A DNA stretch of 64,000 bases, from NCBI GenBank assembly GCA_944393715.1, contig CALYBB010000038.1, positions 15,325 to 79,324 on the forward strand, written 5' to 3'. The notes below the pieces were generated by a model that searched no databases, was not told the origin of the DNA, and worked only from the letters and a program-made list of their open reading frames with translations. The translations under genes were made by a program, and so were the position numbers. This DNA is from an uncultured Alphaproteobacteria bacterium. Lineage in GTDB: Bacteria > Pseudomonadota > Alphaproteobacteria > RF32 > CAG-239. This document shows positions 6,055 to 49,945 of this stretch, in pieces (within the stretch, counting starts at the first letter, position 1; every line of letters starts with the position of its first letter).

Positions 6055-6065
6055 CCCCCCCCCCC
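6055..6065. repeat. Homopolymeric C11 tract followed by a T7 tract, about 65 bp upstream of the BOF-family gene
   Basis: Read directly: ttctcccccccccccttgttttttt. Confidence 0.9.
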
Positions 6066-6128
6066 TTGTTTTTTTGCCATCAAAGCTTATCTCTTTGGCG
6101 AACATGTTATTTTATAAGGAGAAAGCTG

Positions 6129-6524
6129 ATGAAAAAACTATTGTTGTCGTTGATTTGCGTTCTGTTGGCTGCGGCTAATGCACAAGCCAAAGATAAACAC
6201 AAAAACAAAGGATTTGTTTTTGTGCCGGAAAATGTTGTGGTCGAAACCGTGGCCGATGCCAAAGACAAAGCTGATGATACGCTGGTGGTGCTACAGGGAC
6301 AGATTGTTAAGGCTTTGGGTGATGATAAATACCAGTTTACTGACGAAACCGGCGAGATTATTCTGGATATTGATCAGGAAGATTTTGACGGCGTTACCGT
6401 TACCGAAGGCGAAATTATTCAGATTACCGGCGATATTGACAAGGAAATGATGAAACCGACAGAAGTCGATGTCAAACAGATAAAAAAGATTAAGGACAAG
6501 AAAAAAGATAAACATAAAAAATAA
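6129..6524 (+). CDS. BOF (YgiW/YdeI) family periplasmic OB-fold protein
   Basis: Signal peptide MKKLLLSLICVLLAAANAQA. OB-fold core resembles the YgiW family, and the C-terminus is lysine-rich. RBS aaggag upstream of the ATG at 6129. The longer ORF from 6066 is rejected. Confidence 0.65.
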   Translation: MKKLLLSLICVLLAAANAQAKDKHKNKGFVFVPENVVVETVADAKDKADDTLVVLQGQIVKALGDDKYQFTDETGEIILDIDQEDFDGVTVTEGEIIQITGDIDKEMMKPTEVDVKQIKKIKDKKKDKHKK

Positions 6525-12823: not shown

Positions 12824-14539
12824 TTGATGGCTGAAGAAGATAAGCAAGATTATGTCGTTTTAGCGCGCAAGTACCGCCCGCAGAATTTTAATGAACTGCT
12901 GGGACAGGATGCTTTGGTTAGAACGATTACTAATGCCATTAAAAATAACCGGCTGCATCACGCTTATATCTTGACGGGAATCCGCGGTGTCGGCAAAACG
13001 ACCACTGCCCGCATTATTGCTAAGGCTCTTAATTGTACGGGAAAAGACGCAACTGCCGGTGCAACGGTTAATCCTTGCGGTATTTGCGAAAATTGCCGCG
13101 CTATTGCCGAATCGAGGCATATTGACGTATTGGAGCTTGATGCGGCTTCGCGCACCGGCGTGGATGATATTCGCGAAATTTTGGACGGTGTTCGCTACAA
13201 ACCAATCAATGCCCGTTATAAAGTCTATATCATTGATGAAATCCACATGCTTTCCAAACAGGCTTTTAATGCCTTGCTCAAAACTCTGGAAGAGCCACCG
13301 TCTCACGTCGTGTTTATCTTTGCAACGACTGAAATTCGCAAGGTTCCGGTTACCATTTTGTCGCGCTGCCAAAGATTTGATCTGCAACGGTTGTCGATAG
13401 AAACTCTTTTTAATCATTTCAAAAATATTGCCGACAAGGAAAACGTCAAAGCCGAAGACGAGGCTTTGCATCTGATTGCCCAAGCGGCTGACGGCTCTTG
13501 TCGTGACGGGTTGTCGCTTTTGGATCAAGCGATCTCACTCGGCGGCGGCGAAGTTAAAACCGATGTTGTCAAAAATATGATCGGGCTTGCTGACCGGACT
13601 TTGACCTTTGAACTATTTGAAAACTTGGTTTCTGGCAATATAGAGAAGGTTATTGCTAATTTGGATTTGCAACATAGAAACGGTGCTAATCCGCTGAATC
13701 TTTTACAAGATTTGGTTGGTATCACGCATCTTTTGGCAAAGGTTAAAATTGTGCCGGAAGCTGTTAATGATCCGGCTTTGTCTGAAAATGAAAAAGATTT
13801 TTGTTCTCGGTTGGTGCCGAAAATTTCGATCGCCGTTTTGTCGAAAATATGGCAGATGTTGATTAAGGGGCTGAGCGAGCTTAATATTGCGCCGCTGCAA
13901 GATGATGCCCTAGAAATGGTGCTTATTCGCATAGCTTATTCGGCTAGCCTTCCTTCTCCGGCGGAAATTCTGGACGGCTTAAAAAAAAACTCTGATTTGA
14001 CCGGAGCAATTGTAAAAGAGATTGCGGCACCGAGGTCTTTGGAGCAAGCGCCTTTGTCAACTTCAGGCAAAGAAAAAACGGTAGAAACCCGCGCCGATGC
14101 CCTTTGTTTTAATACACCGGAAGATTTGATTAAGTATCTGTCGGATATAAAAGAGCTTATGACGGCGTACAGCCTCAAAAATGATGTTTCGTTTGTTGAA
14201 TTTAAAAACGGTGCCATGAAAATTAATGCCTCCGATAAAATTAACAACGACTTTTTGCTTAACCTACAGCGCCTTCTGACCAAAGCTACGGGAATTTGCT
14301 GGAATATTGACATTCGGAGCGGCGTTTTGGGTGAAACAATCGCCGACAAAGAGGCCGCTAGAGATATGGAAAGCAAAAAAGACGTTATGGATCTGCCCTT
14401 GGTTAAGGCTATTTTGGCAGAATTTCATGGTGCCAGAATCGACAGCCTGACCCGCAAAGCAACGCAACAAGAAGAAAATGCCGAGGCGGCATCTTTTGAG
14501 GAAGAAAACAACTATTTTGATGAGGACAACGACGCATGA
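12824..14539 (+). CDS. dnaX: DNA polymerase III subunits tau/gamma
   Basis: AAA+ clamp-loader motifs GIRGVGKTT, DEIHML and SRC. Contains an internal A9 tract (13981-13989) at about 67% of the gene length. Confidence 0.9.
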   Translation: MMAEEDKQDYVVLARKYRPQNFNELLGQDALVRTITNAIKNNRLHHAYILTGIRGVGKTTTARIIAKALNCTGKDATAGATVNPCGICENCRAIAESRHIDVLELDAASRTGVDDIREILDGVRYKPINARYKVYIIDEIHMLSKQAFNALLKTLEEPPSHVVFIFATTEIRKVPVTILSRCQRFDLQRLSIETLFNHFKNIADKENVKAEDEALHLIAQAADGSCRDGLSLLDQAISLGGGEVKTDVVKNMIGLADRTLTFELFENLVSGNIEKVIANLDLQHRNGANPLNLLQDLVGITHLLAKVKIVPEAVNDPALSENEKDFCSRLVPKISIAVLSKIWQMLIKGLSELNIAPLQDDALEMVLIRIAYSASLPSPAEILDGLKKNSDLTGAIVKEIAAPRSLEQAPLSTSGKEKTVETRADALCFNTPEDLIKYLSDIKELMTAYSLKNDVSFVEFKNGAMKINASDKINNDFLLNLQRLLTKATGICWNIDIRSGVLGETIADKEAARDMESKKDVMDLPLVKAILAEFHGARIDSLTRKATQQEENAEAASFEEENNYFDEDNDA

Positions 14540-14856
14540 TGAATATTCAAAATTTGATGAAACAAGCGCAGATGATGCAAAAGAAAATGCGAGAAGAGCA
14601 AGCCAAGCTGGCAGAAGAGGAAGTTGAGGGATCTTCAGGCGGCGGCATGGTTAAAGTAACCTTGAACGGCAAATATGTTATGACCACACTTCATATTGAC
14701 AAAAGTCTGATTGATCCGGAAGAAGCAGAAATTTTGGAAGATTTGGTTCGCGCGGCTTATAATGATGCCAAGGAAAAAATTGATGCCAAAATGAATGACA
14801 GTTTAAGCGCTCTGACCGGAGGGCTTAATCTCGGCGGAATGAAACTGCCATTTTAA
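14536..14856 (+). CDS. ybaB: Nucleoid-associated protein YbaB/EbfC
   Basis: 106 aa with the YbaB-family pattern. 4-bp overlap with dnaX. Confidence 0.85.
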   Translation: MMNIQNLMKQAQMMQKKMREEQAKLAEEEVEGSSGGGMVKVTLNGKYVMTTLHIDKSLIDPEEAEILEDLVRAAYNDAKEKIDAKMNDSLSALTGGLNLGGMKLPF

Positions 14857-14865
14857 GAGAAAATT

Positions 14866-15459
14866 ATGGCCGGAAAAGATATTGAAATTTTAATTAAACA
14901 AATGGCTAAACTGCCGTCGCTGGGATCGCGTTCAGCCAGACGCATTGTTTTGCACCTTTTGGAAAAACGCGAATCGGCTTTTCTGCCGTTAATTGAGGCC
15001 TTAAATAATGTGGCACAGAATATCAAAACCTGTGAAATCTGTGGCAATTTTGATACCGTAAGCCCCTGCCCTATTTGTAGCTCTACCGTTCGAGATGACA
15101 GCCTGATTTGTGTGGTGCGCGATGTGGCCGATTTGTGGGCAATGGAGCGCGTATCGCTGTTTAAGGGCAAATATCATGTTCTGGGCGGTATTTTGTCGGC
15201 TATGGAGGGTGTGGTGCCGGAAGACCTGAATATTGACTCTCTAGCCAAAAGAATCGCCTCAGGAACGATAAAAGAGCTGGTGTTGGCGCTGCCGGCAACC
15301 ATCGACGGACAAATCACTTCGCATTATCTGTTATCGCGCTTTAAGGATAGCGGTGTCAAAATAACCACGCTGGCGCAGGGAATACCGATGGGCGCCGAGC
15401 TTGATTATATGGACGAAGGCACACTACAGTTGGCACTGAATTCACGCAAGGTGTTGTGA
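14866..15459 (+). CDS. recR: Recombination protein RecR
   Basis: C4 zinc finger CEICGNFDTVSPCPIC and a Toprim domain. Confidence 0.9.
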   Translation: MAGKDIEILIKQMAKLPSLGSRSARRIVLHLLEKRESAFLPLIEALNNVAQNIKTCEICGNFDTVSPCPICSSTVRDDSLICVVRDVADLWAMERVSLFKGKYHVLGGILSAMEGVVPEDLNIDSLAKRIASGTIKELVLALPATIDGQITSHYLLSRFKDSGVKITTLAQGIPMGAELDYMDEGTLQLALNSRKVL

Positions 15460-49469: not shown

Positions 49470-49945
49470 TTTTCTTCTGGTAAAATGTTTGCCCAGTTTT
49501 CAGATAGTTTTTCTAGCTTTGTGTTGATAACTTTCAGCCGATGTTGTGCGGAATTTTTGAAAATGAATACGAATAAGTCGGGGAGGACATAGTACAACAA
49601 AACTCCCAAAGCTGCGGCGCCGAGCATGATAATAATGTTGAAAATATTATCACGAATCGAGAATTCGATACCGGAGTTAAACTGGACGAAAATATTGTTT
49701 AAACGAATCATAATGCCGGCAATATTAAAGCAGCCAACGGTTGTGATTTTGTTGATGTTTTTGGTGTCGGTTATGACGATGGTCAAAGTCGGCAGAAGGC
49801 CTATGAGCAGAACAACAACCGCAGGCAAAACAGTGAAAATAACAAGGATGAGCGCCAGAAAAATTAAAATTTTCTGGATGAAATTGAAGTTGTTTTTGCC
49901 GGTTCTATTTTTTTTTGCCGGTGCTTTGATAATCGGTTTTGTCAT
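49466..49945 (-). CDS. Hypothetical polytopic membrane protein
   Basis: 159 aa with 3-4 TM helices. 4-bp overlap with the upstream kinase-like gene. Its 3' end overlaps the rpoH stop. Confidence 0.4.
   Translation of the reverse strand: MTKPIIKAPAKKNRTGKNNFNFIQKILIFLALILVIFTVLPAVVVLLIGLLPTLTIVITDTKNINKITTVGCFNIAGIMIRLNNIFVQFNSGIEFSIRDNIFNIIIMLGAAALGVLLYYVLPDLFVFIFKNSAQHRLKVINTKLEKLSENWANILPEEN

Follow-up and report, generated by a model that had tools for sequence, protein, structure and literature searches.

How and why bacteria make gamma beside tau is an old question, and it is taken up here for a run of nine adenines (A9) within the dnaX gene of an uncultured gut alphaproteobacterium (GTDB lineage RF32; CAG-239), located in a stretch of 64,000 nucleotides (contig CALYBB010000038.1 of assembly GCA_944393715.1, positions 15,325 to 79,324 of the forward strand), referred to below as the window. 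Three routes to the shorter protein have been described, namely, ribosomal frameshifting, transcriptional slippage and proteolysis. The dnaX gene of Escherichia coli exemplifies the first of them: a −1 frameshift takes place on A_AAA_AAG, with an upstream Shine-Dalgarno (SD)-like element and a downstream stem-loop. The dnaX gene of Thermus thermophilus carries an A9 tract on which RNA polymerase slips, stops are found nearby in both non-zero frames, and gamma and tau are made in a ratio of about 1:1 (Larsen et al. 2000, as summarised in PMC5009743 and PMC1088944). For Alphaproteobacteria only proteolysis has been described, in Caulobacter crescentus, where gamma results from partial proteolysis by ClpXP (Vass and Chien 2013; bioRxiv 10.1101/2022.11.10.516041). 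Through its C-terminal domains tau connects the clamp loader with polymerase and helicase, and it has proved essential in those bacteria that have been studied (PMC5009743; bioRxiv 10.1101/2022.11.10.516041). Comparison with related genes suggests, with a probability that we put at roughly two in three, that at the tau/gamma junction the A9 run at positions 13981-13989 of the window is maintained by selection as a recoding site, acting by poly-A slippage of the Thermus type that is likely transcriptional.

The dnaX coding sequence (tau, 0 frame) spans positions 12824..14539 on the forward strand, as defined by the list of open reading frames (ORFs), Pfam matches and a 100% identical database protein (P0001). 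It encodes 571 amino acids from the TTG at 12824, or 570 (63.0 kDa) from the ATG at 12827, which is the start used in P0001 (MAEEDK). Its identity follows from matches to PF13177 (clamp-loader ATPase module), PF22608 (lid), PF12169 (domain III) and PF12362. Domain III (aa 245-385; 13556..13978 on the forward strand; model positions 2-142 of 143 in PF12169) is the last domain common to both proteins, with the tract starting one codon beyond its end. Two regions further downstream on the same strand belong to tau only: a hypervariable linker (aa 389-430; 13990..14113), recognized in an alignment of 120 homologues, where conservation collapses after the motif [LVI]KK[NK]S, and a C-terminal domain (aa 431-539; 14114..14440) matching PF12362 with E = 5e−20, a family known from the C-terminus of alphaproteobacterial DnaX.

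The A9 run (13981..13989, forward strand), our proposed slippage tract, is made up of the third base of Leu386 (TTA), two AAA codons and the first two bases of Asn389, the in-frame codons being GGC TTA AAA AAA AAC TCT GAT TTG (G385 L386 K387 K388 N389 S390 D391 L392). The initial annotation, made from the sequence of the window, had read the codons as ctt AAA AAA AAC, which is off by one base, CTT being a codon of the −1 frame; its peptide L-K-K-N-S at about two thirds of the gene stands, since L386 is codon 386 of 571 (67.6% of the gene). It had also correctly read the −1 frame as AAA CTC TGA, ending in ...KKKL*: this TGA is found at 13993-13995 on the forward strand, 6 nt after the run (AAA AAA AAA CTC TGA). 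Overlooked at that time was a second TGA on this strand, at 13998-14000, which closes the +1 frame 11 nt after the run (AAA AAA ACT CTG ATT TGA). The predicted −1-frame product, ...LKKKL*, has 389 aa and 43.0 kDa, and the predicted +1-frame products, ...LKKTLI* or ...LKKKTLI*, have 390-391 aa and about 43.1 kDa, so that the short products overall fall within 43.0-43.2 kDa.

The following mechanism is proposed. Standard decoding of messenger RNA (mRNA) with nine A's (or 9+3n) would give full-length tau, complete with the linker and the C-terminal domain; the linker residues 389-430 would be translated only if the frame is kept. In a fraction of expression events the frame would be switched inside the run, most likely because RNA polymerase slips on the homopolymer and produces mRNAs that lack one A or contain one or two in excess; a −1 slip of the ribosome on A_AAA_AAA might add to the frame change. 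Gamma would end at the stop at 13993-13995 if the mRNA has gained one A or the ribosome has shifted by −1, and at the stop at 13998-14000 if the mRNA has lost one A or gained two. In either case the product would be a gamma of about 43 kDa, consisting of domains I-III and 2-4 extra residues. That two proteins are made, their ratio, and a slip in transcription rather than in translation are all three inferred from the sequence.

The window sequence taken alone lifts the tract only weakly above chance. The run is the sole stretch of at least nine A's on the forward strand of the window, and an argument from its uniqueness was nevertheless dropped, because three further sense-strand A9 runs lie inside window ORFs. 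As A9 is not unique in the window, the significance of the tract derives only from its conservation, which across relatives far exceeds chance for the run as well as for both off-frame stops. A protein search retrieved 120 homologues with 69-100% identity, nearly all of them from uncultured gut Alphaproteobacteria, and the DNA of 160 related loci was collected in one genome scan and one metagenome scan. Seventy-nine of these loci form a close clade of gut and rumen metagenome-assembled genomes (MAGs) labelled Alphaproteobacteria, 'Azospirillum sp.' or Candidatus Scatocola, a genus placed by NCBI in Rhodospirillaceae incertae sedis. Clustering at 90% protein identity yielded 51 clusters, 29 with A9 and 22 with A10. 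The motif [LVI]KK[NK]S occurs in all 120 protein homologues, exactly at the switch from domain III to the hypervariable linker. At the homologous codon a run of 8-11 A's is present in 79 of the 79 clade loci, and each of the 72 intact in-frame clade genes has either A9 or A10. The conservation of the tract in orthologous dnaX genes, which the initial annotation had named as a test, is thus strongly borne out, with no AAG at either Lys codon in the 51 clusters. No run of at least eight A's was found at the site in the 81 other Alphaproteobacteria sampled, which comprise GC-rich ones as well as two low-GC representatives, L148 (GC 0.39) and L155 (GC 0.41).

Codon usage within the run is equally constrained. 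K387 and K388 are each encoded by AAA in 51 of 51 clusters (AAG in 0 of 102 cases), whereas eight further Lys columns that are invariant in the same alignment contain 4-22 AAG each and are 80% AAA overall. Codon 386 varies between Leu, Val and Ile across the 51 clusters, but is always TTA, GTA or ATA, even though A is the final base of only 23% of the Leu/Val/Ile codons in these genes. AT-rich codon bias as the cause of the run was ruled out by this Lys-codon control together with the low-GC relatives that lack the run. The off-frame stops behave in the same way. Both alternative frames are closed within 25 nt in 51/51 clusters and in 69/69 unique sequences; at random positions of the same dnaX genes, a stop within 25 nt is expected with a frequency of 0.50 (−1 frame), 0.40 (+1 frame) and 0.17 (both). 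Every one of the 29 A9-type clusters has a −1-frame stop at a distance of exactly 6 nt from the run, and yet codon 391 of this group is GAT, AAT, AGT, AGC, GAA, AAC or AAA, encoding five amino acids (D/N/S/E/K): it always begins with GA, AA or AG after a T-ending codon, and Ser is represented only by AGY. The +1-frame stop, found within 25 nt in 51/51 clusters, is placed at 11 nt in 26 of the 29 A9-type clusters, and is kept while codon 392 varies between TTA, TTG, GTA, CTA and ATA. Off-frame stops make use of all three stop codons, and the 51 clusters display 49 distinct 14-nt downstream contexts. Because AAA is invariant, codon 386 is always A-ending and the stops survive amino-acid turnover, the alignments indicate that the target of selection is not the encoded peptide but the nucleotide sequence of the run, together with the stops in the two alternative frames. 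Slippage that truncates the product is generally difficult to demonstrate by comparative means (PMC1088944); conserved double off-frame stops represent a clean comparative signature of it.

A second A9/A10 run, located 31-101 nt downstream of the first, in the unconserved linker, was detected in 12 of the 51 clusters (L003, L006, L010, L093, L098, L101, L102, L106, L110, L114, L115 and L124). It takes the form GAA AAA AAA AAT RAT ... ('EKKN'), and 3-24 nt beyond it the two other frames are again closed by stops. The remaining ~230 kb of clade loci contain just five further runs of at least nine A's or T's. In the window, the corresponding place (14069-14080) shows only AAAGAAAAAAC.

Two loci outside the clade deserve mention. 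L030, a marine Rhodospirillaceae MAG (NAT66), has an A11 run about 40 nt downstream of its domain III match (GAT CAA AAA AAA AAA GCT GAA CTA A), followed by a −1-frame TGA at 5 nt and a +1-frame TAA at 10 nt. The flanking peptide is unlike that of the gut clade, and the run is apparently independent of the gut clade's; its context resembles the 'A-run GCT/GCC TGA' pattern of Thermus and Chlorobium. The metagenome contig L148, in turn, contains an in-phase A_AAA_AAG (GTA AAA AAG TTA) 13 nt short of where the domain III match ends, with the first −1-frame stop about eight codons further on, and this heptamer might have arisen by chance.

All sequence-level features of the Thermus type that we tested are present in the window gene. 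As in Thermus, there is a single tau ORF, unbroken through the run; the run comprises at least nine A's, lies on the sense strand and follows the shared clamp-loader domains I-III; and stops are found near it in both non-zero frames, so any run length other than 9+3n would lead to gamma. Again as in Thermus, no SD-like or hairpin stimulator would be needed. Functionally, the site is thus probably a dnaX recoding site of the Thermus type. There are also differences. The lineages are gut Alphaproteobacteria and Deinococcus-Thermus, respectively; the run here lies directly on the boundary of domain III, 68% of the way along the gene; its flanks are TTA A9 CTCTGA, compared to GAG A9 GCCTGA for Thermus (PMC3711429); the present genome is richer in AT and tolerant of further A9 runs; and slippage was experimentally shown in Thermus, whereas here it is deduced.

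The alternative that survives best, although we regard it as unlikely, is programmed −1 ribosomal frameshifting of the E. coli type on A_AAA_AAA or A_AAA_AAC, with faithful transcription and termination at the −1 TGA. The run does offer an in-phase X_XXY_YYZ heptamer, followed 6 nt beyond the run by a stop in the −1 frame, the stop lies at exactly that distance throughout the A9-type clusters, and A-rich heptamers shift at measurable rates without stimulators, a bare dnaX site reaching about 14-16% in vitro (bioRxiv 10.1101/2025.10.02.679949). Some parallels with E. coli dnaX are also evident: gamma would lack the tau C-terminal domains, the slippery stretch consists of Lys codons, a −1 stop follows within two codons, and the C-termini of gamma are similar, KKE* in E. 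coli and KKKL* here, as the initial annotation had noted. The site was further said to occupy the same relative position as in E. coli. This holds as a percentage of gene length but not by alignment. In an alignment to solved E. coli structures, residue 379 of the query is matched with residue 366 of E. coli DnaX, so that the tract corresponds to about residue 373-375, the end of the crystallized gamma core 1-373. The E. coli shift site at residue 430 accordingly lies some 55 residues further on, the tract being nearer to domain III.

The search for E. coli-type stimulators was negative. The heptamer A_AAA_AAG, in which AAG makes the E. coli site especially shift-prone (PMC5009743), does not occur in the window tract, where the heptamers are A_AAA_AAA and A_AAA_AAC; unlike in E. 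coli, AAG is never used at either Lys codon (0/51 each), and the +1-frame stop is conserved as well. No SD-like element precedes the tract in the window (upstream sequence GAAATTCTGGACGGCTT), and any SD-like 4-5-mer at 3-20 nt upstream was seen in only 7 of the 51 clusters, with none in the other 44; an SD-like stimulator was therefore rejected. The stem-loop check proposed earlier, by folding the RNA of 13990-14060, revealed no significant structure (minimum free energy −17.2 kcal/mol, z = −0.07 versus shuffles), and the upstream 63 nt (13920-13982) gave z = +0.33. Over the 51 clusters the mean z was −0.45 for 60 nt downstream, −0.25 for 60 nt upstream and −0.61 for an internal control segment, and the sequence downstream of the tract is hypervariable across the clade. 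Since the flanks fold no better than controls, both in the window and in the 51 clusters, a downstream hairpin was also rejected. A cmscan search of 13700-14300 (E ≤ 10) found no Rfam DnaX element, only chance matches to SNORD115 and Yar_1. With heptamer, SD-like element, stem-loop and Rfam match all absent, this is not an E. coli-type cassette. The earlier proposal of a truncated gamma produced by frameshifting or by Thermus-like slippage is thus supported by the comparison, with Thermus as the better fit because the E. coli-type cassette is missing. In addition, −1 frameshifting alone leaves the conserved +1-frame stop (51/51, null 0.40) unaccounted for, and it would yield no tau in relatives with A11, where the tau frame is +1. 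Three observations favour transcriptional slippage over a −1 ribosomal shift: both off-frame stops are conserved, translational stimulators are not present, and the correction required in A11 species runs in the opposite direction.

These A11 relatives, at least two sister species, display the reversed architecture. In the human-gut species represented by L133-135 and L161-167 the run is A11 (at 3628-3638 in L161-L167); L133-135 are three metagenome contigs, and their closest relatives have A10. The 0 frame of this species terminates as ...VKKKI*, and the tau tail is open for 190 codons in the +1 frame (L133-135). The locus is split by gene callers into a 380-aa ORF and a 136-aa ORF with PF12362, in the same synteny as in the window. 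An exact look-up showed that this architecture is no artefact of assembly: the truncated ORF is present on 935 + 256 + 111 + 44 contigs (two start calls, one substitution), and in-frame 579-aa versions are found on 6 and 27 contigs. The truncated ORF occurs in 1679 index blocks, on contigs of up to 0.2-1 Mb, and seven long contigs from independent samples all have A11. The tau tails of two A11 strains differ by 10 synonymous and 4 non-synonymous substitutions, and this ratio of non-synonymous to synonymous polymorphism (pN/pS = 0.12) argues that the tail is still translated; pN/pS values against the distant tails of L096 and L100 were discarded, because the linker does not align without gaps. 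In a second A11 species (L139 type) the 0 frame ends as ..LKKKIKNE*; its truncated ORF falls into a 53-member cluster, one member of which is a 390-aa gamma/tau annotated by NCBI. Its relative L153, with 14% nucleotide divergence, has A10 and is in frame. Given that A11 ends the 0 frame as gamma and places the tau tail in the +1 frame, tau in these genomes can be obtained only by recoding, that is, with one A fewer, with two more, or by a +1 shift; a −1 ribosomal shift would give ...KKKNLNQVP*, not tau.

The L133-135, L161-167 and L139 types are thus comparable to the two-ORF dnaX genes with A10 described in Chlorobi, Bacteroidetes and Verrucomicrobia (Antonov et al. 2013), including Chlorobium, Flavobacterium, Cytophaga, Capnocytophaga, Coraliomargarita and others (PMC3711429). 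In both cases tau is out of frame because of the tract length, gamma is the 0-frame product and the gene is split. The window gene itself is in frame, i.e. of the Thermus type rather than two-ORF. The split relatives differ as well, since they carry A11 and need a +1-type correction, whereas the published cases are given as −1 at the DNA level, mostly with A10. No alphaproteobacterium appears among the two-ORF names in one part of the PMC3711429 supplementary alignment. Moreover, a full-text search of one literature library returned no paper joining dnaX, tau/gamma, frameshifting and Alphaproteobacteria. As far as that search showed, a poly-A slippage site in dnaX has not been reported before in Alphaproteobacteria, although the kind is known from Thermus.

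Tract length is variable, and this raises a second alternative, which we consider less probable still, namely, that the run is a contingency locus subject to slipped-strand mispairing, such that with standard decoding A9/A10 cells would make only tau and A8/A11 cells only gamma, the two genotypes being mixed within a population or lineage. A9, A10 and A11 are each fixed in close relatives, and A10, A11 and A12 variants of the ORF coexist in one species (33, >1,300 and 38 contigs). In Candidatus Scatocola faecigallinarum, an A9 species, A9 is found on at least 1000 contigs, the A8 product on 91 (in Logan only) and the A10 product on 10. The variants counted in these two species belong to protein clusters P0138-P0140 and P0121-P0127. 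Judged by the tail region, A10 and A11 are also out of step with strain phylogeny: L163 (A11) is nearer to L104 (A10) than to L161 (A11). This mismatch hints at repeated flips, though errors could also account for it. Against a purely DNA-level switch, an A11 cell without recoding should be dead, since tau is essential in the bacteria studied, and yet A11 is dominant in a widespread species in which the tau tail is under purifying selection. Minority lengths of a few per cent are expected from homopolymer sequencing or assembly error too, and those seen here are compatible either with such error or with real DNA heterogeneity. The variants P0139 and P0140 were not accepted as evidence at the RNA level, because they lie on DNA contigs of up to 29-64 kb. 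The gamma ORFs predicted for the window organism (A8 and A10 variants) were absent from the protein collection; as the species is rare, P0001 being found on one contig, this absence says nothing either way.

The weakest alternative, which is hardly credible, holds that there is no recoding at all and that KK(N/K)S is kept for a protein reason (domain III cap, protease or processing site), with the run and the stops as by-products of AT-rich codon usage: the genome has 42% GC, AAA is the preferred Lys codon (77-80%), other A9 runs sit in window ORFs, AT-rich genes frequently have stops in the alternative frames (null 0.40-0.50 within 25 nt) and Caulobacter gamma comes from proteolysis, but this view is at odds with AAG in 0/102 of the two Lys codons versus 20% at the eight control columns, with codon 386 changing between L, V and I yet always ending in A, with codons 391/392 changing amino acid yet preserving off-frame stops of all three kinds, with the low-GC relatives outside the clade that lack the run, with a second run with stops recurring in the unconserved linker, and with the gene being interrupted in A11 species.

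Several points nonetheless weigh against Thermus-type slippage at the window tract. After the run, AAC TCT is near-invariant in the A9 group (29/29 and 28/29, respectively), which the need for stops alone does not explain. The three other sense-strand A9 runs in window ORFs are tolerated. Two of them, 25 nt apart, at 46478-46486 and 46511-46519 on the reverse strand, belong to the same 292-aa ORF (46221..47099; ..IEKKIF.. / ..RQKKMH.. pair), and the third, at 49908-49916, also on the reverse strand, lies near the start of a 159-aa membrane-protein-like ORF (49466..49945). These ORFs look ordinary, and the genome tolerates A9 as such. Efficient slippage at every A9 would be costly, and the tolerated runs argue against a very efficient one; AT-rich organisms that do not avoid such runs may have less slip-prone polymerases (Baranov et al., PMC1088944). 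Furthermore, the run contains an in-phase A_AAA_AAA heptamer, at which ribosomal frameshifting is possible. Homopolymer errors or DNA-level heterogeneity exist as well and could blur some of the counts. Finally, by analogy with Caulobacter, so far the one member of the class to have been studied, a ClpXP proteolysis route may also operate here. The two share the class Alphaproteobacteria, a PF12362-type tau C-terminus and the need for a shorter gamma, and differ in that the Caulobacter route is post-translational and involves no slippery tract. The gut clade appears to have evolved or acquired a nucleic-acid-level route to gamma instead of, or besides, proteolysis.

A further and rather doubtful extension may be entertained, in which the tau:gamma balance of the clade is heritable and evolvable, being set by tract length (A9/A10 in frame, A11 out of frame) and tract number (about one lineage in four has a second A10 run), and lineages or even strains flip repeatedly between tau and gamma as the default product. 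Slippage would then near parity in both directions, and mutation of the DNA tract would act as a tuning knob for replisome composition. Species, and possibly strains, of in-frame and out-of-frame architecture coexist in a clade that represents the fourth major lineage with a poly-A tract in dnaX and provides independent evolutionary evidence for selection on the short form. A practical consequence concerns annotation, which splits or truncates dnaX in abundant human-gut species, leaving a 380-390-aa 'gamma/tau' ORF on >1,300 contigs; completeness estimates and pseudogene calls for these genomes should allow for the recoding site.

Downstream of dnaX, on the same strand, the window contains its usual neighbours, ybaB (14536..14856; PF02575) and recR (14866..15459; PF13662, PF21175, PF21176, PF02132), and the same synteny is observed in the relatives. 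A tRNA scan found no tRNA-Lys gene in the window. The sole long C/G homopolymer of the window is an intergenic C11 at 6055-6065, followed by TTG and T7 (6069-6075), about 65 nt upstream of the ATG at 6129 that opens an ORF for a small signal-peptide protein ending at 6524; this tract may represent a phase-variable promoter or spacer.

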